A stretch of DNA of 64,000 bases. It comes from Escherichia coli (GTDB taxonomy: Bacteria; Pseudomonadota; Gammaproteobacteria; Enterobacterales; Enterobacteriaceae). The stretch lies in the NCBI RefSeq assembly GCF_044324875.1, contig NZ_CP172185.1; one strand, 5' to 3'. A program made the position numbers and the translations under genes. Below are positions 1,972-14,475 of this stretch, one piece after another (position 1 is the first letter of the stretch; every line of letters starts with the position of its first letter). The notes under the pieces are model-generated. The model had not been told where the DNA came from, searched no databases, and saw nothing but the letters and a program-made list of their open reading frames with translations.

Positions 1972-3659
1972 TGAAAAACGTTTTATGTGAAACCGCCTCC
2001 GGGCGGTTTTGTCGTTTATGGAGCGTGAGGAATGGGTAAAGGCAGCAGTAAGGGGCATACCCCGCGCGAAGCGAAGGACAACCTGAAGTCCACGCAGTTG
2101 CTGAGTGTGATCGATGTCATCAGCGAAGGGCCGATACAAGGACCGGTGGATGGATTAAAAAGCGTGCTGCTGAACGGTACGCCGGTGCTGGACAGTGAGG
2201 GGAATACCAATATATCCGGCGTCACGGTGGTATTCCGGGCCGGTGAGCAGGAGCAGACGCCGCCGGAGGGATTTGAATCCTCCGGCTCCGAGACGGTGCT
2301 GGGTACGGAAGTGAAGTACGACACGCCGATTACCCGGACCATCACGTCGGCAAACATCGACCGTCTGCGCCTGACCTTCGGTGTGCAGGCACTGGTGGAA
2401 ACCACCTCAAAGGGGGACCGGAATCCGTCGGAAGTCCGCCTGCTGGTTCAGATACAGCGTAACGGTCGCTGGTTAACGGAAAAAGACATCACCATTAAGG
2501 GCAAAACCACCTCGCAGTATCTGGCCTCGGTGGTGGTGGGTAACCTGCCGCCGCGCCCGTTCAGTATCCGGATGCGCAGGATGACGCCGGACAGCACCAC
2601 AGACCAGCTGCAGAACAAAACGCTCTGGTCGTCATACACCGAAATCATCGATGTGAAACAGTGCTACCCGAACACGGCACTGGTCGGTGTGCAGGTGGAT
2701 TCGGAGCAGTTCGGCAGCCAGCAGGTGAGCCGTAATTATCATCTTCGCGGGCGCATTCTGCAGGTGCCGTCGAACTATAACCCGCAGACGCGGCAATACA
2801 GCGGTATCTGGGACGGAACGTTTAAACCGGCATACAGCAACAACCCGGCCTGGTGTCTGTGGGATATGCTGACCCATCCGCGCTACGGCATGGGGAAACG
2901 TGTTGGCGCAGCGGATGTGGATAAATGGGCGCTGTATGTCATCGGCCAGTACTGCGACCAGTCAGTGCCGGACGGCTCTGGTGGCACGGAGCCGCGCATC
3001 ACCTGTAATGCCTGGCTGACCACACAGCGTAAGGCGTGGGATGTGCTCAGTGATTTCTGCTCGGCGATGCGCTGTATGCCGGTATGGAACGGGCAGACGC
3101 TGACGTTCGTGCAGGACCGACCGTCGGATAAGGTGTGGACCTATAACCGCAGTAATGTGGTGATGCCGGATGATGGCGCGCCGTTCCGCTACAGCTTCAG
3201 CGCCCTGAAGGACCGCCATAATGCCGTTGAGGTGAACTGGAGTGACCCGGATAACGGCCAGGAGACGGCGACAGAGCTTGTGGAGGACACGCAGGCCATT
3301 GCCCGTTACGGTCGTAACGTCACGAAGATGGATGCCTTTGGCTGTACCAGCCGGGGGCAGGCACACCGCGCCGGGCTGTGGCTGATTAAAACAGAACTGC
3401 TGGAGACGCAGACCGTGGATTTCAGCGTGGGTGCTGAAGGGCTTCGCCATGTACCGGTGCAAAATGGCATCTGAATCGATCGCAGTTTGGCATTCGAATC
3501 GATCATGATTTGGCATCCATCTCCGATCACAGTTTGGCATCACAATCGATCACGATTTGGCATGCTTCCGATCATTGATTGGCATCCTGCCAGTCACTCC
3601 GGGAATTAACTCTTTTCACCACAGTCTCCATTGCCGTGTTTAAACCAGTGGAGACGTCA

Positions 3660-5225
3660 ATGTCCAGAAAGAGAAAATCCAGGAGCACTATGGAAACCTG
3701 TTTTAAGATCCTTCAGCTCAAGTTCGACAAGAAGCTGACTAACCGTTGTATCGGACTGACGTTACACATCAGCGCCTCAACCGTTTTTGAGGTTCTTGCC
3801 CGCTTCAAAGCCTCTTCTCTGTCATGGCCATTACCTGCTGATATATCCCATGACACGCTGGAGAAACTCATTTTTCCGCCCAAAGACACCTTTGCATCAG
3901 AGCTTGTAATGCCTGACATGTTGTACTTCGATACGGAAATGAGAAAACCAGGTGTGACGCGGCAACTGTTGTGGATGGAATACAAGGCACAGGCGGGTAA
4001 CAAAGCGATGGGATACTCGCACTTCTGCCGTTGCTACCGGGAGTGGAAAAAAACGCGACGTCTCTCCATGCGCCAGGAGCATCGTGCCGGCGAAAAGCTT
4101 TTTATCGACTTCTGTGGTCCTACGGTTCCTGTTATTAATCCGGACACCGGTGAGATACGCCGCGTGGCAATCTTCGTGGCCGTAATGGGGGCGTCCAACT
4201 ATACCTACGTTGAAGCGTGCGAAGGTCAGGACATGATGTCATGGTTAAATGCCCACAGCCGTTGCCTGACCTTCCTGGGCGGCGTACCGAAGCTGCTCAT
4301 CCCCGATAACCTCAGAAGCGCAGTGAAAAAGGCCGATCGATATGAGCCTGTCATCAACGACAGTTATCAGGCACTGGCTGAGCACTATGGCACGGTTATC
4401 ATCCCGGCCCGACCACGCAAACCTAAAGATAAACCAAAAGCAGAAAACGGCGTCCTCATCGTTGAACGATGGCTTCTTGCCCGCATCCGTAATGAAACCT
4501 TCCACACGCTCAGGGCGCTGAATGCGCGCCTTAGGGAGTTACTGACAGACATGAATAACCGGCCAATGAAGGGGTACGGCAATCAAACCCGTGCAGAACG
4601 CTTCCGCATACTGGATGCGCCAGCACTCTCTCCGCTGCCTCTGGCACCTTATGAATACACGGAATACAAAGCTGTGAAGGTTGGCCCTGACTACCACGTT
4701 GAATATGCCCGTCACTGGTACTCCGTTCCACACGAACTGGTCGGTCAGCGTCTGTCACTGAAGGCGGGGCAGTCGGTGGTACAGCTCTGGCACAAGGGGC
4801 AGTGTGTGGCGCAACATCCGCGCAGCACACATGAATATAAACACACAACCAATCCGCTTCACATGCCAGAGCGCCACCGGCAGCACGGGACATGGACACC
4901 GGAACGCCTGATCGAGCAGGGAAAACGTACGGGCCCGTCCACAGGCCGGGTGGTTGAATCCATGCTGAAGGCAAAACCCCATCCGGAACTGGCTTATCGT
5001 GCAGTTCTGGGGCTGCTGGCACTTCAGAAAAAATACGGCCCGGAACGGCTGGAAAAGGCCTGTTACGTTGCCCTGCACTATAACGCCCCTGACAGACGCT
5101 TTATCGACAATCTGCTGCGTCACCATCGGGAGAACCTGGAGCTTCCATTATCCCGCCAGGGCGAACAACATCCGGCATATGCTTCAGAGCATGAAAACCT
5201 GCGTGGTCCGGGCTACTACCACTGA
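3660..5225 (+). CDS. istA: IS21-family transposase IstA
   Basis: About 520 aa with N-terminal HTH region (...LSWPLPADISHDTLEKL...) and an IstA-like central/C-terminal region; start chosen at ATG 3660, upstream alternative start possible. Confidence 0.75.
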   Translation: MSRKRKSRSTMETCFKILQLKFDKKLTNRCIGLTLHISASTVFEVLARFKASSLSWPLPADISHDTLEKLIFPPKDTFASELVMPDMLYFDTEMRKPGVTRQLLWMEYKAQAGNKAMGYSHFCRCYREWKKTRRLSMRQEHRAGEKLFIDFCGPTVPVINPDTGEIRRVAIFVAVMGASNYTYVEACEGQDMMSWLNAHSRCLTFLGGVPKLLIPDNLRSAVKKADRYEPVINDSYQALAEHYGTVIIPARPRKPKDKPKAENGVLIVERWLLARIRNETFHTLRALNARLRELLTDMNNRPMKGYGNQTRAERFRILDAPALSPLPLAPYEYTEYKAVKVGPDYHVEYARHWYSVPHELVGQRLSLKAGQSVVQLWHKGQCVAQHPRSTHEYKHTTNPLHMPERHRQHGTWTPERLIEQGKRTGPSTGRVVESMLKAKPHPELAYRAVLGLLALQKKYGPERLEKACYVALHYNAPDRRFIDNLLRHHRENLELPLSRQGEQHPAYASEHENLRGPGYYH

Positions 5226-5241
5226 CAGAAGGAACAACAGT

Positions 5242-5997
5242 ATGAGTGATAACCTGTTAAACAAACTGACCCAACTGAAACTCCCGGCGATGGCCGGGAG
5301 CCTGATACGGCAGCGGGAAACGCCTCAGACCTACGACGAACTGTCGTTCGAGGAAAGGCTGACGCTGCTGGTTGATGACGAGCTTCTGAGCAGGGAAAAC
5401 AGCCGTGTGGCACGGTTGAGAAAAAATGCCGGCCTGAAATACCAGGCAACACCGGAAGGGCTGCGCTATCCGGCCTCAAGAGGTCTGCGGGCTGAACAGA
5501 TGAGAGAACTGCTGAACGGCCACTACATAACCCACAGGAAAAACCTGCTGATAACCGGTCCGACAGGATGTGGCAAGAGCTGGATAGCCAATGCGCTGGG
5601 CGAACAGGCATGTCGACAGAAACACAGCGTCCGGTACTGTAGAACCGGGCGATTACTGGAACAACTGGCTCAGGGACGTGTTGATGGCAGCTGGCTGAAA
5701 TATCTGAAACAGTTGCAAAAAATACAGGTTCTAATCCTGGACGATCTGGGGCTGGAACAGTTAAGTAACGCCCAGTGTAATGACCTTCTGGAGCTCATAG
5801 AGGATCGTTACGGACAAAGCAGCACGATAGTGGTAAGCCAGTTCCCGGTAGATAAATGGCATGGTCTGATGGAGAACCCAACAACAGCAGATGCCATCCT
5901 GGACAGACTGGTACATAACTCACACCGAGTGGTCCTTCAGGGAGAGTCACTGAGGAAAAATCCCCCGGTAGTGGAAAGCAGCGAAAAAACGCGTTAA
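5242..5997 (+). CDS. istB: IS21-family helper ATPase IstB
   Basis: 251 aa; Walker A GPTGCGKSWIANALG; Walker B LILDDLG; typical IstB size and position after istA. Confidence 0.85.
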   Translation: MSDNLLNKLTQLKLPAMAGSLIRQRETPQTYDELSFEERLTLLVDDELLSRENSRVARLRKNAGLKYQATPEGLRYPASRGLRAEQMRELLNGHYITHRKNLLITGPTGCGKSWIANALGEQACRQKHSVRYCRTGRLLEQLAQGRVDGSWLKYLKQLQKIQVLILDDLGLEQLSNAQCNDLLELIEDRYGQSSTIVVSQFPVDKWHGLMENPTTADAILDRLVHNSHRVVLQGESLRKNPPVVESSEKTR

Positions 5998-8218
5998 AAA
6001 GCGGTAGAAAAAGTTAAGTTCCCGGTTGATCGAATGGATGCGAATCGCTGATCGGACTTCGATGCCAATCCGTGATCGAATAGAGCGGAATACGCATACC
6101 GGGCGATGTCATTGAAATCTGTGATGATGACTATGCCGGTATCAGCACCGGTGGTCGTGTGCTGGCGGTGAACAGCCAGACCCGGACGCTGACGCTCGAC
6201 CGTGAAATCACGCTGCCATCCTCCGGTACCACGCTGATAAGCCTGGTTGACGGAAGTGGCAATCCGGTCAGCGTGGAGGTTCAGTCCGTCACCGACGGCG
6301 TGAAGGTAAAAGTGAGCCGGGTTCCTGACGGCGTTGCCGAGTACAGCGTGTGGGGGCTGAAGCTGCCGACGCTGCGCCAGCGCCTGTTCCGCTGCGTGAG
6401 TATCCGTGAGAACGACGACGGCACGTATGCCATCACTGCCGTGCAGCATGTACCGGAAAAAGAGGGCATCGTGGATAACGGGGCACACTTTGACGGTGAC
6501 CAGAGCGGCACGGTGAATGGTGTCACGCCGCCAGCAGTGCAGCACCTGACTGTCGAAGTCACCGCAGACAGCGGGGAGTATCAGGTACTGGCCCGCTGGG
6601 ACACGCCGAAGGTGGTGAAAGGCGTGAGTTTCATGCTTCGCCTGACCGTGGCAGCGGATGACGGCAGTGAGCGGCTGGTCAGCACGGCCCGGACGACGGA
6701 AACCACATACCGCTTCAGGCAGCTGGCGCCGGGGAACTACAGGCTGACAGTCCGGGCAGTAAATGCCCGGGGGCAGCAGGGAGACCCGGCGTCGGTATCG
6801 TTCCGGATTGCCGCACCGGCAGCGCCGTCGCGGATTGAGCTGACGCCGGGCTATTTTCAGATAACCGCCACGCCGCATCTTGCCGTTTATGATCCGACGG
6901 TGCAGTTTGAGTTCTGGTTCTCGGAAAAGCGGATTACCGATATCAGGCAGGTTGAAACCACAGCCCGTTATCTTGGTACCGGAAGTCAGTGGCTTGTCTC
7001 CGGCCAGAATATTAAACCTGGCCATGATTATTACTTTTATATCCGCAGTGTTAACACTGTCGGTAAATCGGCATTCGTGGAGGCAGTCGGTCGGGCGAGT
7101 AATGATCCTGCCGGTTACCTTAATTTTTTCAGGGGGGCGATAAATAAAACGCATCTGGGACGGGAGATCAATGAACGCATTGATGCCTCTGCACGGCGCA
7201 CTGAAGTTGAGCAACTGGAGAATGCGATTAACCGCGAAATGACGCAGCTGGAGAATGCGATTAACCGCGAAATGACGCAGCTGGAGAAAGATGTGAGGCA
7301 GCGTGCGGAGCGTGATATCGCAGAGGTGACGAAAAAAATCACGGCGTCTGAAAACAGCATAACGGAACTGGTGGCGAAAAAGAGCGGTGAACAGTCGCTG
7401 GCCATTGCGAAAGTCGACAGGAAAGTTGACAGCGTGAGCAGTGAAATCCGGCAGACAGTAAGCAGGAGCACGGAGGAGAACAGCCGACAGATAGCGCAGG
7501 TCAGGCAGTATGTTGATGATAAAAGTGCGCAAATAAGTACTGTTGTGGCGAAAAAGAGCGGTGAACAGTCAATGGCCATTGCGGAAGTTGACAGAAAAGT
7601 TGACAGGATGGGCAGCGAAATCCGGCAGACAGTAAGCAGGAGCACGGAGGAGAACAGCCGACAGATAGCGCAGATCAGACAGTATGTTGATGATAAGGGA
7701 AGTCAGATCAAACAGAGCACGGATAAAAAACTGGGATCCTGGAATGCCAGCATTGAGCAGATACAGAAAGTTCAGGAGGACACGCGCCGGAACCTGAACA
7801 GCATGTGGGCTGTGAAGCTGCAGCAGACACGGGATGGACGTCTCTATATTGCAGGTATTGGTGCCGGAATCGAAAATACGTCTGACGGAATTCAGAGTCA
7901 GATCCTGATGCAGGCAGATCGTATTGCGATGATTAACCCGGAAAATGGCAATACAACACCTTTGTTTGTGGCTCAGGGTGATCAGCTGTTCATGAATGAT
8001 GTTTTCATGAAAAAACTGACCGTGGATTTTGCCAGAGTGACGGGAGATATCCGGTCAGATAATTTTCATTCCGGTAGTCCGGGGTGGCGTTTATCAAGAA
8101 ACGGCAGCCTTGAAATTAACTCAGGAAGGCCCGGCGCAGGCCGCCTGTTTTTCAATGGCGAGCGAATCGACGTATATGACGATAACAATGTGTTAAGAGT
8201 ACGACTGGGGAGACTGTA

Positions 8219-8479
8219 ATGTTCGGAGTCCGGGTATGGCGCAAAGGGCGCCTTGTGACACATGAAATAAACCCAACAGGGGTGCTGGATGTGATCACTG
8301 AAGGGACGGGGCAGCGTTCTTATACTCCTTTGCAGGGCTGGCGTCTGGAAGTCTGTTCACCGGCCATTCTGATTAACGGTCAGGGAAGTCATACCAGTGC
8401 CAGTGTATCCGGCTGGACAGTGCACTATGCCAACACAAGCTGGCTAAGACCCGTGCTGGTCATGATAAGGGGGATCTGA
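8219..8479 (+). CDS. Hypothetical phage protein, translationally coupled to J (TAATG overlap)
   Basis: 86-aa ORF starting on the J stop codon; no motif I can recognise. Confidence 0.4.
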   Translation: MFGVRVWRKGRLVTHEINPTGVLDVITEGTGQRSYTPLQGWRLEVCSPAILINGQGSHTSASVSGWTVHYANTSWLRPVLVMIRGI

Positions 8480-9141
8480 TGTTTGCACTTAAATTAACTG
8501 ATGAGCGGGGGAGAGAATGGATATCACCTGTTGCGCCGCCACTGAACCTTGTGCGCCGTTTTCATTTCACACTGAGTGCGCGTGATGCGGTGATGCAGTT
8601 TATCGACACCGGGGTGCCGACGAATTATCGTTGCGTGATTTTTATTAAACAGATAAGCGGTAATCAGTCCTTCCATGGTGAAATGGTTCAGCTTAACGGT
8701 ACCTGGCAGTATGACATTTTCAGCGCTGGTACAGGGCAGGAGCCGGGCATGGAACAGGACAGCACATATGTTGTTTATGTTTTTGCCAACATGGTGAATG
8801 TATGGCCGCAATGGGGAATACAGTTGTGCGACAGTCATGGCAGGGTGGTCTGGAACACGGAAATGCTGCCACTGGAAGTAAAAATGACGCGAATATGGGA
8901 AAAGGATGTACCGATCAGTGTGGGACATGATGTGGCCGTAATGCCGGGGTGTACCCAGTGGACGACAGTTCAGGAAGGGGAGAGTTATTACTGGTATACC
9001 GCCAGTTTTAATGCCAGAAACTCACAGTTATGGCGTCAGTCAACTTTTGCTGAAGATAACGTAGCGGCGCCCAATGATAATTCAGGTGTTGTTAATAACC
9101 TCTGTTATTACATAAATGCAGAAATTTATGATGCGTACTGA
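8479..9141 (+). CDS. Hypothetical phage protein (tail-associated or moron), coupled by TGATG overlap
   Basis: 220-aa ORF, Trp/Tyr-rich, no recognisable catalytic motif; sits between J and the side tail fiber. Confidence 0.45.
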   Translation: MFALKLTDERGREWISPVAPPLNLVRRFHFTLSARDAVMQFIDTGVPTNYRCVIFIKQISGNQSFHGEMVQLNGTWQYDIFSAGTGQEPGMEQDSTYVVYVFANMVNVWPQWGIQLCDSHGRVVWNTEMLPLEVKMTRIWEKDVPISVGHDVAVMPGCTQWTTVQEGESYYWYTASFNARNSQLWRQSTFAEDNVAAPNDNSGVVNNLCYYINAEIYDAY

Positions 9142-9162
9142 TAGTTATGTTGAGGGCATGTA

Positions 9163-9408
9163 ATGAAAATAATCGTCTGCACTTTTTTGCTGTTTCTTGT
9201 ATCAGGTTGCGCGGGGTACCGTTCCGTTACGGAGAGAGTCCGGTGCACCGGTGTGCTGAGTCCCGGGGTTTTACAGCGAGCTTATACGGTAGATCTTACA
9301 GGGAAAATAGAAACGAAAAGCGGCACTGTGTATAAAGTATCAGCTCCGAGATTTTATGGTCAGTGGGTGAGTGAAGATATGTTTACGAAAGTTTCGTGCG
9401 TGAAGTAA
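9163..9408 (+). CDS. Small phage lipoprotein, candidate Cor-like superinfection-exclusion protein
   Basis: 81 aa; signal peptide with lipobox MKIIVCTFLLFLVSGC; lies where lom/cor-type genes sit in lambdoid phages. Function is inferred. Confidence 0.5.
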   Translation: MKIIVCTFLLFLVSGCAGYRSVTERVRCTGVLSPGVLQRAYTVDLTGKIETKSGTVYKVSAPRFYGQWVSEDMFTKVSCVK

Positions 9409-9483
9409 TCATAAAAACACCCGATTGTAAATGAATGACGACGCCCGCAATTTTGCGGGATTATTTTTATTTGTGGAGCGAGT

Positions 9484-10812
9484 ATGGCGGCTGTAAAAAT
9501 TTCAGGCGTGCTCAGGGACGGAACCGGAAAACCGGTACCGGGATGCATTATTGAGCTGAAAGCGAAGAGAACCAGCGAGACAGTCATCGCCACGACAGTG
9601 GCTTATGGCATGCCGGAAGAGACGGGGAGTTACAGTATGGATGTGGAGCCAGGAATATACAGGGTGACACTCAATACAGAAGGTTACCGTCCTTCGTATG
9701 TGGGAGATATCGTGGTCAGGGAGGATTCTTCACCGGGAACACTGAATAAATTTCTGATGGAGATGGAAGATGCTCCTTATTATCCGAAGGCGTTGTCAGA
9801 GCTGGAGGCTGTGGTGCAGTCCATACTGCACAGAGCAGAGTCCGCGGCATCTGAGGCGGAGGAAGCCCGGAAGCGAGCAGCATCTGCCCGGGGACCACGA
9901 GGAGAGAAAGGGGATACCGGCGCTCGTGGTGAAAGAGGCATTACCGGGCCACAGGGGCCAAAAGGTGAAACAGGAGCACGTGGCCCGGCAGGACCACAGG
10001 GACCAAAAGGTGAAACAGGTGAACGCGGTCCGGCAGGTCCACAGGGACCAAAGGGCGATACAGGTGAACGCGGCCCGGCAGGTCCACAGGGACCAAAAGG
10101 TGAAACAGGTGCACGTGGTCCGGAAGGTCCACAGGGAGCAAAAGGTGAAACAGGTGAACGCGGCCCGGCAGGTCCACAGGGAGCAAAGGGCGAAACAGGT
10201 GCACGTGGTCCGGAAGGCCCTCAGGGTCTGAAGGGAGAAAAGGGTGAGCGAGGAGAAAAAGGCCCTAAGGGGGATAAAGGAGATCCGGGAGGTCCACAGG
10301 GACCAAAAGGTGAAACAGGTGAACGTGGCCCGGCAGGTCCACAGGGACCAAAAGGTGAAACAGGTGAACGTGGCCCGGCAGGTCCACAGGGACCAAAGGG
10401 CGATACAGGTGAACGCGGTCCGGCAGGTCCACAGGGGCCAAGAGGGTATACAGGTGAACGCGGGCCGACAGGTCTACAGGGGCCAAGAGGGTATACAGGT
10501 GAACGCGGGCCGGCAGGTCCACAGGGGCCAAGAGGAGAAGCGGGGCGGCCAGCGAGCGTCGGAAGTGTTTATTCCGTGGGGTCTTATGTTCTGGGGATCA
10601 TAGAACGAAATCATGAGATAACAAATACCCGTCAAATACCCGGGTATCGTATCAGACAGGCCGTTATTGTGTCGTCGTCATCGGATAAACTTACAGATAT
10701 CCGCTTTTTATTTGGCAATCCTATGCTTGGTACATGGATGTTATGCACAACTAACATGGCGGTGAATAATATCAGTGGGACGATTTGGGGCCTGTTTCAG
10801 AGAATACTGTGA
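9484..10812 (+). CDS. Prophage side tail fiber protein with collagen-like Gly-X-Y repeat region
   Basis: N-terminus [29 protein letters not shown]... resembles the Stf N-terminal domain of E. coli prophages; about 220 aa of GxY triplets ([19 protein letters not shown]...). Confidence 0.8.
9886..10548 (+). repeat. Tandem, roughly 45-bp coding repeats (collagen-like Gly-X-Y) inside the tail fiber gene
   Basis: Repeated [15 protein letters not shown] units at nucleotide level; the ORFs in other frames and on the opposite strand over this stretch are repeat artefacts. Confidence 0.8.
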
Positions 10813-11002
10813 CAGGGGGAGAAATGAATGAAGGTCGATAAAATCACGTCACCAGTGTGGGCTGACAGGGGTCATACGACCATAAACTGTATAGTGAAGT
10901 TTTCAGACGCGGAAACAGAATGTGTATTTACAGCAAGTGCGGATGATCCGTAACCGGCTCATTTAAACCGTCTGGTCTGTTTCCTCCGGCTCTACAAAAA
11001 TA

Positions 11003-11680
11003 ATGTCCATCATTTTTAATGGACACTATCGTATGAAACACCGGACCTGGATCACTGAAGCTTTACGTCTTCACTTTGAAGAACATTTACCCCGGGTTGT
11101 GGCCGGGCGTCGCCTGGGTGTACCAAAATCAACAGTTTGTAGTATGTTCGTGCGCTTTCGGAGAGCTGGCCTTTCGTGGCCTTTGCCCGCAGGCATGTCG
11201 GAGCAGGAACTTGATGCCTGCCTTTACGGACAATTTTCCACGGTACCAGTCGTACGTCCTGAAAGCACCGTTATATCCGAAGCCCCCGTGGTAAAAAAAC
11301 GTCCCCGGCGGCCCAACTTCCCTTATGAGTTTAAAATCGCCTTAGTGGAGCAGTCACTGCAGCCCGGAGCCTGTGTGGCGCAGATCGCCCGGGAAAACGG
11401 AATCAACGATAACCTGCTCTTCAACTGGCGCCATCAATACCGGAAAGGTGGCCTGCTGCCTTCCGGAAAAAATATGCCGGCACTGCTTCCCGTGACGTTA
11501 ACGCCGGAGCCGGATAATAAAATCCCGGCCCCCGCACAGGAACCAGAGCAGATAAATACACCGTCCGACAGTCTGTGTTGTGAGCTGGTTCTGCCGGCCG
11601 GAACTCTCAGGCTTAAAGGTAAACTGACGCCGGCGTTATTACAGACACTTATCCGCGAAATAAAAGGGAGCAGCCACTGA
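11003..11680 (+). CDS. tnpA: IS66-family accessory protein (orfA/TnpA) with N-terminal HTH extension
   Basis: C-terminal part ...PNFPYEFKIALVEQSLQPGACVAQIARENGINDNLLFNWRHQYRKG is IS66 orfA-like; N-terminal part carries an LSWPLPA HTH-like motif. Start codon uncertain. Confidence 0.7.
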   Translation: MSIIFNGHYRMKHRTWITEALRLHFEEHLPRVVAGRRLGVPKSTVCSMFVRFRRAGLSWPLPAGMSEQELDACLYGQFSTVPVVRPESTVISEAPVVKKRPRRPNFPYEFKIALVEQSLQPGACVAQIARENGINDNLLFNWRHQYRKGGLLPSGKNMPALLPVTLTPEPDNKIPAPAQEPEQINTPSDSLCCELVLPAGTLRLKGKLTPALLQTLIREIKGSSH

Positions 11681-12027
11681 TGATATCTCTCCCTGCAGGT
11701 TCGCGTATCTGGCTGGTTGCAGGTATCACCGATATGCGAAATGGCTTTAACGGCCTGGCATCAAAAGTTCAGAACGTCCTGAAGGATGACCCGTTCTCCG
11801 GACACCTGTTCATCTTCCGCGGACGCCGGGGTGACCAGATAAAAGTGTTGTGGGCTGACAGTGACGGACTGTGCCTCTTCACCAAACGCCTGGAGCGGGG
11901 CCGCTTCGTCTGGCCAGTCACCCGTGACGGCAAGGTGCACCTTACTCCGGCTCAGTTATCCATGCTTCTTGAAGGTATCAACTGGAAGCACCCGAAACGA
12001 ACGGAACGCGCTGGAATCCGCATATAA
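11680..12027 (+). CDS. tnpB: IS66-family TnpB (Orf2)
   Basis: 115 aa MISLPAGSRIWLVAGITDMRNGFNGLASKVQNVL...; overlapping start with orfA stop. Confidence 0.85.
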   Translation: MISLPAGSRIWLVAGITDMRNGFNGLASKVQNVLKDDPFSGHLFIFRGRRGDQIKVLWADSDGLCLFTKRLERGRFVWPVTRDGKVHLTPAQLSMLLEGINWKHPKRTERAGIRI

Positions 12028-12046
12028 CCCGTTGTAAAGTGAGGAT

Positions 12047-13618
12047 ATGGACACCTCACTTGCTCATGAGAACGCCCGCCTGCGGGCACTGTTGCAGACG
12101 CAACAGGACACCATCCGCCAGATGGCTGAATACAACCGCCTGCTCTCACAGCGGGTGGCGGCTTATGCTTCCGAAATCAACCGGCTGAAGGCGCTGGTTG
12201 CGAAACTGCAACGTATGCAGTTCGGTAAAAGCTCAGAAAAACTTCGTGCAAAAACCGAACGGCAGATACAGGAAGCACAGGAGCGAATCAGCGCACTTCA
12301 GGAAGAAATGGCGGAAACGCTGGGTGAGCAATATGACCCGGTACTGCCATCCGCCCTGCGCCAGTCTTCAGCCCGTAAACCGTTACCGGCCTCACTTCCC
12401 CGTGAAACCCGGGTTATCCGGCCGGAAGAGGAATGCTGTCCTGCCTGTGGTGGTGAACTCAGTTCTCTGGGATGTGATGTGTCAGAGCAACTGGAGCTTA
12501 TCAGCAGCGCCTTTAAGGTTATCGAAACACAACGTCCGAAACAGGCCTGTTGCCGGTGCGACCATATCGTGCAGGCACCAGTACCTTCAAAACCCATTGC
12601 ACGCAGTTATGCCGGAGCGGGGCTTCTGGCCCATGTTGTCACCGGGAAATATGCAGACCATCTGCCGTTATACCGCCAGTCAGAAATATACCGTCGTCAG
12701 GGAGTGGAGCTGAGCCGTGCCACACTGGGGCGCTGGACAGGTGCTGTTGCTGAACTGCTGGAGCCGCTGTATGACGTCCTGCGCCAGTATGTGCTGATGC
12801 CCGGTAAAGTCCATGCTGATGATATCCCCGTCCCGGTCCAGGAGCCGGGCAGCGGTAAAACCCGGACAGCCCGGCTGTGGGTCTACGTCCGTGATGACCG
12901 TAACGCCGGTTCACAGATGCCCCCGGCGGTCTGGTTCGCGTACAGTCCGGACCGGAAAGGTATCCATCCACAAAATCACCTGGCCGGTTACAGCGGTGTG
13001 CTTCAGGCCGATGCTTACGGTGGTTACCGGGCGTTATACGAATCCGGCAGAATAACGGAAGCCGCGTGTATGGCTCATGCCCGGAGAAAAATCCACGATG
13101 TGCATGCAAGAGCGCCCACCTACATCACCACGGAAGCCCTGCAGCGTATCGGTGAACTGTATGCCATCGAGGCAGAGGTCCGGGGCTGTTCAGCAGAACA
13201 GCGTCTGGCGGCAAGAAAAGCCAGAGCCGCGCCACTGATGCAGTCACTGTATGACTGGATACAGCAACAGATGAAAACACTGTCGCGTCACTCAGATACG
13301 GCAAAAGCGTTCGCATACCTGCTGAAACAGTGGGATGCACTGAACGTGTACTGCAGTAATGGCTGGGTGGAAATCGACAACAACATCGCAGAGAACGCCT
13401 TACGGGGAGTGGCCGTAGGCCGGAAAAACTGGATGTTCGCGGGTTCCGACAGCGGTGGTGAACATGCGGCGGTGTTGTACTCGCTGATCGGCACATGCCG
13501 TCTGAACAATGTGGAGCCAGAAAAGTGGCTGCGTTACGTCATTGAACATATCCAGGACTGGCCGGCAAACCGGGTACGCGATCTGTTGCCCTGGAAAGTT
13601 GATCTGAGCTCTCAGTAA
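12047..13618 (+). CDS. tnpC: IS66-family transposase TnpC
   Basis: 523 aa; N-terminal coiled coil, Cys cluster CCPACGGEL...CCRCDH, DDE-type catalytic region. Confidence 0.85.
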
Positions 13619-14475
13619 ATATCAATACGGTTCTGACGAGTCGCTTACGATGATCCTGAGTCTTACGGTCGTGAAATATTTGAAGCCTGCATAAGAGGTG
13701 ATGCAGGGCCGGTAGGTGAGTACCGGGCAAATGATGATATGGCTGTGGAAGAAGCACGCAGGATGAAAAACGCGGAGATAAATGCCTGGCGTGATGCGAT
13801 GGAGGCGTCAGGGTATGTTTTTGAGCACAGAGGACGGAAATGGGATTATGGAAAGGAAACCATGACACGTCTTGGAATGTCGGCATCAGCGGCCAGAGGC
13901 GGTGTGTTGCCGGAAGGATTTTTCTGGACGGACGCAGAGAATAATGATGTACCGATGACGGCAGATGAACTGATATCCCTGAGTGATGCTGCTGGTAAAG
14001 CGATGTTCAGGAAAGGCCTTGAAATACATATAAGGCAAAGGGAGATGAAAAAGGCAATAGCAGAACTGAGTGACAGTGAAACCATTCTGGCGTACAGGGT
14101 TGGATGGTGAAACTGATAAAAAAACCCCTCTGAAAATTCTGTCAGAGGGGGGCAAGGATCTATATTTATTATGCGGTAATGCTTTCACTCCGGTAATTAA
14201 TTTCAGTGATTAACTGCTTTCGATCAATAAAGGAATTGCAAAAAGGTGATCTTGTTCACGACATTGTGGATGATAATATGCCTGATGTCTGAATCCGGAA
14301 ACAGTGATCTGGCGGGTTTCATGTGAAGTTGACGGATAAAAAATCCGCACGACCAGACAGACGTGCGGTTTACGAAATTCGTAACAAGAGGCTTTTCTAG
14401 GGATCACGTGGTGCGTGCCACGTGAAATTTTTGTAGCGCAAAATGTGTAATGTGTAAATACAAGGAAGGAAAAAG

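Follow-up and report, generated by a model that had tools for sequence, protein, structure and literature searches.

A rare, divergent copy of a predicted host-range cassette downstream of J in a lambda-like Escherichia coli prophage

What do the three small genes lying between the tail-tip gene J and the side tail fiber gene of a lambda-like prophage contribute to the phage or to its host? The genes are part of a 64,000-nucleotide stretch of the E. coli contig NZ_CP172185.1 (assembly GCF_044324875.1), referred to here as the window, and the original prediction was that they were uncharacterised or were exclusion genes of the lom/cor type. For the first two our comparisons lead instead to the family of N15 gp22 and gp23 and, as far as sequence comparison goes, the three genes make up a version of a known phage host-range cassette that is both rare and divergent. 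We put at about 0.78 the probability that the region is a variable host-range cassette of a lambda-like prophage, in which the J tip, ORF1, ORF2, and ORF3 travel together. Such cassettes set the outer-membrane receptor of a phage and the phages that a lysogen excludes, and tail-tip cassettes are obvious handles by which host range could be predicted or re-engineered.

Gene order, junctions, and expression signals

All three ORFs are present on the plus strand, with the sizes originally given: ORF1 (8219-8479, 86 aa), ORF2 (8479-9141, 220 aa), and ORF3 (9163-9408, 81 aa). The predicted coupling of the first two to J is borne out in its geometry, as the ATG of ORF1 overlaps the TAA of the J frame by one base (ctgTAATGttc) and that of ORF2 likewise overlaps the ORF1 stop codon, TGA, by one base (atcTGATGttt); through these overlaps ORF1 and ORF2 would be translated in step with J. 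The gene adjoining ORF1 is indeed J, although only its C-terminal fragment (ORF 6159-8219) is found there. ORF3 starts 21 nt after ORF2, in the position that cor has in N15, Midgardsormr38, and Fostie, and each of the three starts has a purine-rich, Shine-Dalgarno-like stretch 5–9 nt on its 5′ side (GGGGAGA, AAGGGGGA, and GAGGG, respectively). The unit J-ORF1-ORF2-ORF3 is closed by a terminator-like hairpin with a T-run (9444-9469, plus strand), which a terminator scan 3′ of ORF3 returned as CCCGCAATTTTGCGGG followed by ATTATTTTTA; in N15, too, a terminator is annotated at the corresponding spot downstream of cor. The next gene, a side tail fiber with collagen-like repeats (9484-10812, plus strand; PHROG 366, E 2.6e-103), lies outside the cassette. 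A promoter scan found none upstream of ORF3, and its sole promoter-like site (8603-8631) falls within ORF2. By eye, a weak candidate promoter (TTATTA-16 nt-TATGAT) can be seen at 9105-9132.

The PGAP annotation of related E. coli genomes places the ORF1 start 36 nt further downstream, giving a 74-aa protein, and leaves ORF3 unannotated. We consider the 86-aa ORF1 the better call because its homologues align from the Met of the TAATG.

The family of the coupled pair and its partner on J

Several routine searches were silent: none of the three proteins had a match in Pfam, neither PADLOC defence models nor megablast against the phage collection gave any match, and searches of PDB sequences with each protein and with family profiles returned nothing for ORF1 or ORF2. 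Word-indexed protein searches with ORF2 and ORF3 recovered near-identical clusters only, and the family was reached by an exhaustive profile search. Identities of the cassette proteins to characterised members are only 18–36%. The 220-aa protein, to which no function had been assigned, can nevertheless be placed. ORF2 matches PHROG 425 from end to end (residues 1-218, E 3.3e-27), and an HMM built from 111 sequences of its family gives Pseudomonas phage DEV gp54 a score of 29.6 bits (E 3.4e-11, as a single comparison), the best of 200 shuffled controls reaching 4.4 bits. ORF1 has a weak match to PHROG 557 (E 2.8e-4), which is consistent with synteny, and it aligns with the small genes of JenP1, haarsle, Stx2-86, Midgardsormr38, and Fostie, sharing 25–35% identity with the six homologues in the alignment. 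The N15 gp22/gp23 family has been proposed as the receptor-binding tip of J-type fibers (PMC8594841, PMC12309495). We thus regard ORF1 as a predicted small, beta-rich partner or adaptor of a tail-tip receptor-binding pair (N15 gp22/T1 gp32/DEV gp55 type) and ORF2 as the predicted receptor-binding protein itself (N15 gp23/T1 gp31/DEV gp54 type, described as “hand-like”). A match of the coupled ORFs to known tail structural proteins had been named beforehand as the result that would speak against the original prediction, and this is what was found for both.

Natural fusions of ORF1-like and ORF2-like domains exist, which argues that both act as one unit: the ORF1-family HMM matches the N-terminal domains of such proteins, 309–325 aa in length, with E values from 2.4e-9 to 3e-4. 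We rejected the idea that the fusions are proteins of the Rtp44/Oekolampad type; they occur in Pantoea and Pectobacterium phages. Also set aside was the possibility that ORF1 and the N-terminal half of ORF2 are paralogous, which remains an idea and not a finding (hhalign probability 23%; scores over 10 bits for 2 of 109 members of the family and for 0 of 545 shuffles; N15 gp22 at 12.7 bits).

Neither ORF1 nor ORF2 contains a signal peptide, a lipobox, or a hydrophobic or membrane segment. Both are predicted to be soluble, all-beta, and free of export signals. In the PDB, the ORF1+ORF2 model has one strong match only, and this is a receptor-binding protein of solved structure, that of Oekolampad (9RPT), whose fold the pair is predicted to share. 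At the sequence level this likeness is not visible, for hhalign gave the family a probability of 3% against the Oekolampad protein, the HMM score (10.3 bits, against 8.6 for the best shuffle) was not significant, and the ORF1 HMM found nothing in it. By the model, the two-gene pair has its fold in common with the solved LptD binder of Oekolampad, which connects receptor-binding families recently held to be unrelated or unplaceable by structure search and may be of use in annotation.

The Oekolampad protein binds LptDE directly, as seen by cryo-EM (10.1101/2025.07.07.663478; PDB 9RPT). Like the present cassette, the receptor-binding protein bas18_0025 and the small exclusion lipoprotein bas18_0026 of Oekolampad (Bas18), and likewise Rtp44/Rtp45, are encoded beside a J-like gene, but the Oekolampad protein is one 321-aa chain and not two proteins, and its gene is convergent with J and uncoupled from it. 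In phage DEV, gp56, gp55, and gp54 (429, 99, and 223 aa) have overlapping junctions, a J-like tip, and an ORF2-family protein in gp54, and gp55 resembles ORF1 in a single N-terminal motif of 13 residues; DEV differs in being a podovirus of another genus with a short, 429-aa fiber in place of a full J, in having no adjacent lipoprotein, and in using LptD as its receptor. Genetics and virion proteomics showed that the DEV pair is essential, and gp54, a virion protein in which mutations rescue growth on an lptD mutant, is its receptor-binding protein; in the published model, the fiber trimer bears a small protein and a large one, one copy of each (PMC12892993; PDB 9ZE4).

The J of the present prophage ends in a way that fits this arrangement. 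The last ∼900 nt of J (∼7300-8219, plus strand) are cassette-specific and encode a coiled-coil and beta-helical tip, of which 150–270 aa are homologous to the fiber tips of JenP1 (E 5e-33), haarsle (E 9e-27), N15 (gp21, E 6e-11), Stx2-86 (gp26, E 3e-11), and DEV (gp56, chain 9ze4_N, E 1.4e-6). It has the ending common to docking-type tips (S-[DN]-N-[FY]..G..GW ... LRV.[LI]G), and the match of this J to lambda J stops at about residue 941 of 1132. Judged by its sequence, the tip is without a lambda-like receptor-binding end and presumably carries a docking site for ORF1 and ORF2.

Small genes on the 3′ side of fiber genes often encode chaperones, the tail fiber assembly proteins, and ORF1 and ORF2 might on that precedent assemble the J tip without being kept in the virion, leaving the J C-terminus to bind the receptor as in lambda. 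The uncertain detection of DEV gp55 in virions would suit such a role (PMC12892993). We think it very improbable, however, in view of a J tip that has no lambda-like receptor-binding end and whose conserved, docking-type terminus is common to phages with different receptors, of the presence of DEV gp54 in the virion (PMC12892993), and of the direct binding of LptDE by an Oekolampad protein of the same fold (10.1101/2025.07.07.663478).

The stop/start overlaps, both between the fiber gene and the pair and within the pair, recur in a sister cassette of E. coli, N15, Midgardsormr38, and DEV. They are not universal, as T1 has a terminator between gp33 and gp32 and as Hanrivervirus and JenP1 have a pair that is convergent with J. 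N15 genes 21 (C-terminus), 22, 23, and 24 (cor) are homologous to the cassette in all four parts, which follow one another as they do here: the J tip, genes for ∼100-aa and ∼225-aa proteins, and the Cor lipoprotein, with the same overlaps, a terminator after cor, and then a side fiber. Midgardsormr38 gp28-31 and Fostie share the gene order, sizes, and overlapping junctions. T1 gp33-32-31-cor agrees in order, sizes, and homology of its parts, but there the terminator intervenes between gp33 and gp32, and cor is encoded by the opposite strand. What separates the present genes from N15 and T1 is an identity of only 24–30%, a shorter ORF1 (86 vs 100 aa), and an ORF3 that falls under the cut-off for Cor equivalogs. 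HK022 and phi80 also have the FhuA-type tail-tip cassette, according to PMC13164509.

These comparisons bear on the suggestion that all three genes form an envelope-protein module of the lom/cor type, for superinfection exclusion or lysogenic conversion, in which ORF1 and ORF2 would aid the lipoprotein in blocking the receptor. In FhuA-dependent phages the pair and cor are tightly linked, in Stx phages lom follows the pair, and the KanT1 paper (2026), which reported no structural matches for the T1-type pair and guessed at an exclusion role, speaks against the host-range reading (PMC13164509). Nevertheless, none of the three ORFs has a Lom match in Pfam, PHROG, or NCBIfam, and a Lom identity was rejected for this reason and because ORF2 lacks a signal peptide. 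Neither member of the pair has a signal peptide, lipobox, or hydrophobic segment that would place it in the envelope, the pair is coupled to the structural gene J and not to cor, cor of T1 lies on the strand opposite to the pair, and Stx podophages and DEV have the pair with no lipoprotein next to it. The virion location and receptor-adaptation mutations of DEV gp54 (PMC12892993) and the fold shared with a solved receptor-binding protein point the same way, and we hold an exclusion module of all three genes to be quite improbable.

As a host-range cassette, the genes might act as follows. On the pattern of the DEV model, a single ORF1 and a single ORF2 would dock on the end of the J trimer, and ORF2, a ∼220-aa all-beta protein, would, from its homology and fold, contact an outer-membrane protein of the host and trigger infection. 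Once exported and lipidated, ORF3 would be anchored to the outer membrane by its inner leaflet. There, on the precedents of Cor, Llp, and Rtp45, it may bind the receptor of ORF2 on the periplasmic face, which would stop adsorption by related phages and by the progeny.

The lipoprotein and the question of the receptor

ORF3 begins MKIIVCTFLLFLVSGC and has the lipobox that had been noted in the 81-aa protein (L-V-S-G-C), with Cys16 as the predicted acylated residue, a hydrophobic leader (Kyte-Doolittle maximum 1.87 in a 19-residue window), and a mature protein of 65 aa. It occupies the site of cor in N15, T1, Midgardsormr38, and Fostie, as its position had suggested. Its resemblance to Cor also held up: identities to named Cor relatives (T1, N15, and Midgardsormr38 among them) are about 28–38%, those to the Cor proteins of these three phages are 28–36%, and the key residues are kept, since ORF3 has in common with them the lipobox Cys, Cys28, Phe74, and Cys79. 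Among 108 aligned Cor-family sequences, Cys16 and Cys28 never vary, and Phe74 and Cys79 hardly do. ORF3 matches PHROG 27799 (E 1.2e-8) and PHROG 1119, Cor (E 8e-7). Because its score with the NCBIfam model for Cor (NF047972) is 28.4 bits, under the cut-off of 31, we regard it as a superfamily relative and not a certified Cor equivalog. It is the predicted superinfection-exclusion factor for the cassette's own receptor.

T5 offers a parallel in organisation, with a separate receptor-binding protein on a straight fiber (pb5) and a receptor-blocking periplasmic lipoprotein (Llp), although pb5 is an unrelated protein of 640 aa. Cys28 and Cys79 of ORF3 are at positions comparable to those of Cys11 and Cys58 of Llp, which form a disulphide (PMC9586334), and the match of the Cor-family profile to Llp (E 2e-4) consists mostly of the leader peptide and first Cys. 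The ORF3 model (pLDDT 78.5) had no Foldseek match in the PDB at E <= 0.001, and T5 Llp was not among the hits listed; predicted structures of such lipoproteins differ from the bound ones (10.1101/2025.07.07.663478).

That a Cor-like lipoprotein would block FhuA-dependent phages, as originally proposed, does not follow from the resemblance, as lipoproteins with the Cys pattern of ORF3 adjoin the pair in the BtuB-dependent Hanrivervirus phages. In KarlJaspers (Bas06) and haarsle, genes for a lipoprotein and for ∼92-aa and 204-aa proteins beside J are homologues of ORF3, ORF1, and ORF2; they differ in having a reversed order that is convergent with J, 21–29% identity, and BtuB as the terminal receptor. 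Among phages that have been characterised, the kind of pair goes with the receptor: N15 and T1 with FhuA, KarlJaspers (Bas06) with BtuB, and Stx phages of the tv24B type with BamA (PMC12309495). In phages of the 933W/tv24B type the same pair (Stx2-86 gp27-gp28) lies 3′ of a 422-aa fiber (gp26) with a tip homologous to that of J, but the standard version is followed by lom and not by a Cor-like lipoprotein. BamA is the reported receptor of these phages (Smith et al. 2007, as cited in PMC12309495).

ORF3 could still be a true Cor orthologue that inactivates FhuA, the cassette then being a divergent member of the FhuA type; its closest named relatives are, after all, Cor proteins (28–38% identity), and the gene order is that of N15, which is FhuA-dependent, and of Fostie and Midgardsormr38. 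We doubt this, though it deserves serious thought, as ORF3 falls below the curated Cor cut-off, ORF2 is equally distant from N15 gp23 (24% identity), BtuB-type proteins (21–23%), and Stx-type proteins (24–26%), and cassettes of the BtuB type are served by lipoproteins with the same Cys pattern. The receptor is not readable from the sequence, and FhuA is one candidate among several. More speculatively, the cassette and its sister in podophage-type prophages may recognise an outer-membrane protein other than FhuA, BtuB, LptD, or BamA, with ORF3 as the matching periplasmic blocker, and one superfamily may embrace the split pairs of the FhuA, BtuB, BamA, and DEV types together with the natural fusions and those LptD binders that are single chains, its three ∼100-aa repeats capping the J trimer as a pseudo-threefold unit; we offer this composite proposal tentatively and would not be surprised to see it fail.

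Distribution and the state of the present prophage

The middle of J (window 6160-7100) is found in 4371 of 5426 complete E. coli genomes, as compared to only nine for the J tip (window 7300-8216). The tip and ORF1-ORF3 have one common distribution, these 9 of 5426 genomes. The sister cassette in E. coli keeps all three ORFs and both overlapping junctions, with proteins 48–53% identical to those described here (ORF2, 52%; the lipoprotein 3′ of the sister cassette, 48% to ORF3), and it lies behind the 421-aa fiber of a 933W-like, podophage-type prophage. This conservation, with the profile matches, indicates that the three ORFs did not arise by chance. A distribution shared by the J tip and the three genes, together with a sister in a podophage context, is as expected of an exchangeable host-range module. 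The present cassette thus adds a divergent and rare subfamily, with a sister in podophage-type prophages, to those already described.

In the genome at hand J is interrupted. Its N-terminal fragment (2032-3457, plus strand; ORF 2032-3474) is collinear with the intact J of E. coli LH50-c (NZ_CP100500, 1506707-1510216) up to position 3457, where an IS21-family element with istA and istB begins (3458-6096, plus strand); the C-terminal fragment (6097-8219, plus strand) matches NCBIfam lambda_TipJ and PHROG 31. A 6-bp target duplication borders the element, as seen from blastn break points that overlap by 6 bp in the comparison with L001 (L001 7031-7036), and matches to the insertion are annotated “istA: IS21 family transposase.” The J::IS junction was found in none of the 5426 complete E. 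coli genomes. Because J is split by this element, the cassette cannot build a tail in the present genome; its tail-tip function is dead here, and the lipoprotein alone could still matter to the host. The practical consequence in this genome is accordingly small, as the prophage tail has already been inactivated by insertion sequences.

Tail genes of the prophage are broken by insertion sequences. The side tail fiber that follows the cassette is 162 aa shorter than the L001 version, a difference that arises from repeat copy number.

Gene order and prophage state

The region downstream of the tail gene J is probably a host-range cassette of the tail tip with a predicted exclusion lipoprotein, ordinary in type and present here in a rare, divergent version. 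We found the three predicted ORFs of 86, 220 and 81 aa (hereafter ORF1, ORF2 and ORF3) on the plus strand at 8219-8479, 8479-9141 and 9163-9408, and the first two are coupled as had been described: in TAATG the upstream frame's TAA and the ORF1 ATG have one base in common, and in TGATG so do the ORF1 TGA and the ORF2 ATG. Purine-rich ribosome-binding stretches are present at all three starts. The N-terminus of ORF3 (MKIIVCTFLLFLVSGC) is a hydrophobic leader followed by the expected lipobox, and a 19-residue hydropathy scan (maxima of 0.61, 0.88 and 1.87 for ORF1, ORF2 and ORF3, respectively) revealed no leader or hydrophobic segment in ORF1 and ORF2, which carry no export signals. A hairpin with a T-run (9444-9469) ends the J-ORF1-ORF2-ORF3 unit, and the next gene encodes the collagen-like side tail fibre (9484-10812). 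Within the 3' end of ORF2, ∼30 nt ahead of ORF3, there is a weak promoter-like element (TTATTA-16 nt-TATGAT, 9105-9132) that was seen by eye and not picked up by the promoter scan.

In related RefSeq genomes, PGAP begins ORF1 at a GTG 36 nt into the frame, making it 12 codons too short, labels ORF2 "hypothetical" and leaves ORF3 without annotation. Because ORF1 homologues align from the TAATG methionine (e.g., MYGIQVWRKGIL in the sister cassette of a podophage-type prophage vs. MFGVRVWRKGRL in the window), the long ORF1 is the right one. In E. coli LH50-c, a relative with an intact J (locus L001), the annotation faults are at 9156-9380 and 10042-10382 of that locus, with ORF1 too short and the lipoprotein gene missing.

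The frame directly upstream is J, as originally predicted, but alignment with LH50-c showed that 6159-8219 is only its C-terminal part. The gene is split by an IS21-family element (istA/istB, 3458-6096, 6-bp target duplication), and the prophage is therefore tail-defective; this J::IS junction was absent from all 5426 complete E. coli genomes searched. The same alignment delimited an IS66-family element (10950-13648, 8-bp target duplication, three ORFs at 11003-13618), which splits a DUF4376-domain gene 3' of the side fibre into fragments at 10828-10953 and 13739-14110. The prophage is a defective, IS-riddled one. Long runs of collagen-like G-X-Y repeats make up part of its side fibre, and apparently a change in their copy number leaves the protein 162 aa shorter than that of LH50-c.

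Relatives of the cassette

All three genes had been regarded as uncharacterised, with ORF3 Cor-like. This interpretation is upheld in part: the Cor-like assignment is supported (PHROG 1119, E 8e-7), and the coupled ORFs belong to a known cassette family. ORF2 matched PHROG 425 ("membrane associated protein"; E 3.3e-27) over its whole length and ORF1 matched PHROG 557 ("outer membrane protein"; E 2.8e-4), while Pfam, PADLOC and PDB sequence searches with the three ORFs returned no match. ORF2 relatives at about 25% identity were found by tblastn in 266 phage records, and an exhaustive profile search yielded 168 representatives of its family at E ≤ 1e-3. Thirteen of these are 309-325 aa long with an extra N-terminal domain, which the ORF1-family HMM matches (E 2.4e-9 to 3e-4, set of 150). 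Among phages, Pantoea phage Vid5 and Pectobacterium phage Sabo encode the fusion, which related Pectobacterium phages have as two separate genes; the fusions speak for ORF1 and ORF2 acting as a single physical unit.

The J C-terminus was compared, as proposed, with that of N15: its last 130-270 residues are homologous to the N15 fibre tip, and also to the tips of haarsle, JenP1 and Stx2-86 gp26 and to the DEV gp56 fibre (PDB 9ZE4 chain N). In N15, genes 21 (tail tip fibre), 22 (100 aa) and 23 (225 aa; 24% identity to ORF2 by direct comparison, E 9e-6) have overlapping junctions as in the window and are followed by cor, a terminator and a side fibre; the genes of Erwinia phage Midgardsormr38 and coliphage Fostie are laid out as in N15. 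T1 gp33-gp32-gp31 are alike in order and sizes, but a terminator separates gp33 from gp32 and cor is on the opposite strand. Hanriverviruses (haarsle, KarlJaspers) carry a lipoprotein, a 92-aa and a 204-aa gene that, unlike those of the window, are convergent with J. The pair is also present in Nonagvirus JenP1 and, after a 422-aa fibre and before lom, in 933W-like Stx podophages. N15 and T1 use FhuA as receptor. KarlJaspers (Bas06) uses BtuB (BASEL supplementary table), and BamA is named for Stx phage tv24B by a work cited in PMC12309495; with users of BtuB, FhuA and BamA all in the family, it is therefore not tied to one receptor.

The coupled pair and its predicted place at the tail tip

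Opinions in the literature diverge. The locus adjoining gpJ has been described as a receptor-binding locus with its exclusion protein by Maffei et al. (PMC8594841) and likewise in a 2026 preprint (10.64898/2026.04.02.716166). Matusiak et al. (PMC12309495) placed a small protein and a "hand-like" one, in models, at the tip of the spike in a Dhillonvirus, Stx phage tv24B and a Pseudomonas phage, and the KanT1 paper (PMC13164509) reported no structural hits for the pair and guessed at an exclusion role. Pseudomonas phage DEV serves as experimental anchor: its gp56-gp55-gp54 (429, 99 and 223 aa) have overlapping junctions, none of the three is dispensable, gp54 is part of the virion, and gp54 mutations restore growth on an lptD mutant (PMC12892993). 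An HMM of 111 ORF2-family sequences scored 29.6 bits against DEV gp54 (E 3.4e-11 as a single comparison; best of 200 shuffles, 4.4 bits), and hhalign gave E 1e-4 over 119 collinear columns; DEV gp55 has only an N-terminal motif in common with ORF1. If the window follows the DEV model, the J trimer would be capped by a single copy each of ORF1 and ORF2, and ORF2 would contact the receptor.

Modelled as one chain with the fusions as guide and an 85-sequence alignment, ORF1 and ORF2 gave an all-beta prediction (pLDDT 82.8, pTM 0.81) with one significant Foldseek match in the PDB (E 6.8e-4, TM 0.48/0.56), 9RPT chain C, which is phage Oekolampad's receptor-binding protein in complex with LptDE. ORF2 by itself may account for the match, and no similarity between the ORF1/ORF2 family and the Oekolampad protein was found at the sequence level; even so, the predicted fold groups ORF1 and ORF2 with a protein for which receptor binding has been solved experimentally (10.1101/2025.07.07.663478). 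The Oekolampad gene likewise adjoins J, with a small exclusion lipoprotein gene. The motif [FYW]G-x-x-[ILV]-x-[DN]-x-x-G occurs at the N-termini of ORF1 (8219-8260) and ORF2 (8479-8520), at ORF2 residues ∼104-118 (about 8788-8835), in DEV gp55 and gp54 (locus L018), and in about three copies, ∼105 residues apart, in the Oekolampad single chain (L016 10658-11620, minus strand). That the three repeats form a pseudo-threefold cap is speculative, the statistical support being weak.

The lipoprotein and inheritance of the cassette

ORF3 scored 28.4 bits against the NCBIfam Cor model, below its cut-off of 31, and is 28-36% identical by direct comparison to Cor of T1, N15 and Midgardsormr38. When ORF3 is aligned with 107 members of the Cor family, Cys28 and the lipid anchor Cys16 never vary, and Phe74 and Cys79 hardly ever do. 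In the mature protein Cys28 and Cys79 become residues 13 and 64, similar in place to Cys11 and Cys58, which form a disulphide in T5 Llp (PMC9586334); the Cor-family profile matched Llp (E 2e-4) mostly via the leader and first cysteine, and a Foldseek search of the PDB with the ORF3 model (pLDDT 78.5) gave no significant match. At most, ORF3 would be an exclusion lipoprotein of the Cor superfamily directed at the cassette's own receptor, which, by analogy with Llp, Cor and Rtp45, it would block from the periplasm. FhuA is a possible, though not a likely, candidate for that receptor; lipoproteins of BtuB-type cassettes have the same cysteine pattern, and ORF3 and its 48%-identical 81-aa sister stand apart from the named Cor proteins.

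Of 5426 complete E. coli genomes, only 9 contained the 1.4-kb region at ≥99.5% identity, and no deposited phage matched it. The middle of J (6160-7100) occurs in 4371 of these genomes and its end (7300-8216) in only 9, which places a mosaic joint inside J at about 7100-7300; the count for the last ∼900 nt of J equals that for the three downstream genes. The closest ORF2 relative outside the nine genomes (52% identity) is in a 933W-like podophage-type prophage, where it follows a 421-aa fibre with overlapping junctions as in the window and the cassette ends with the sister lipoprotein. Given this sister cassette and the equal distribution, the tip of J travels as one with the three genes behind it and, judged from sequence, moves with them between siphovirus and podovirus tails. 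In the E. coli contigs carrying the sister cassette (L011-L013), a hok/gef toxin gene comes next, at the place of lom in Stx phages.
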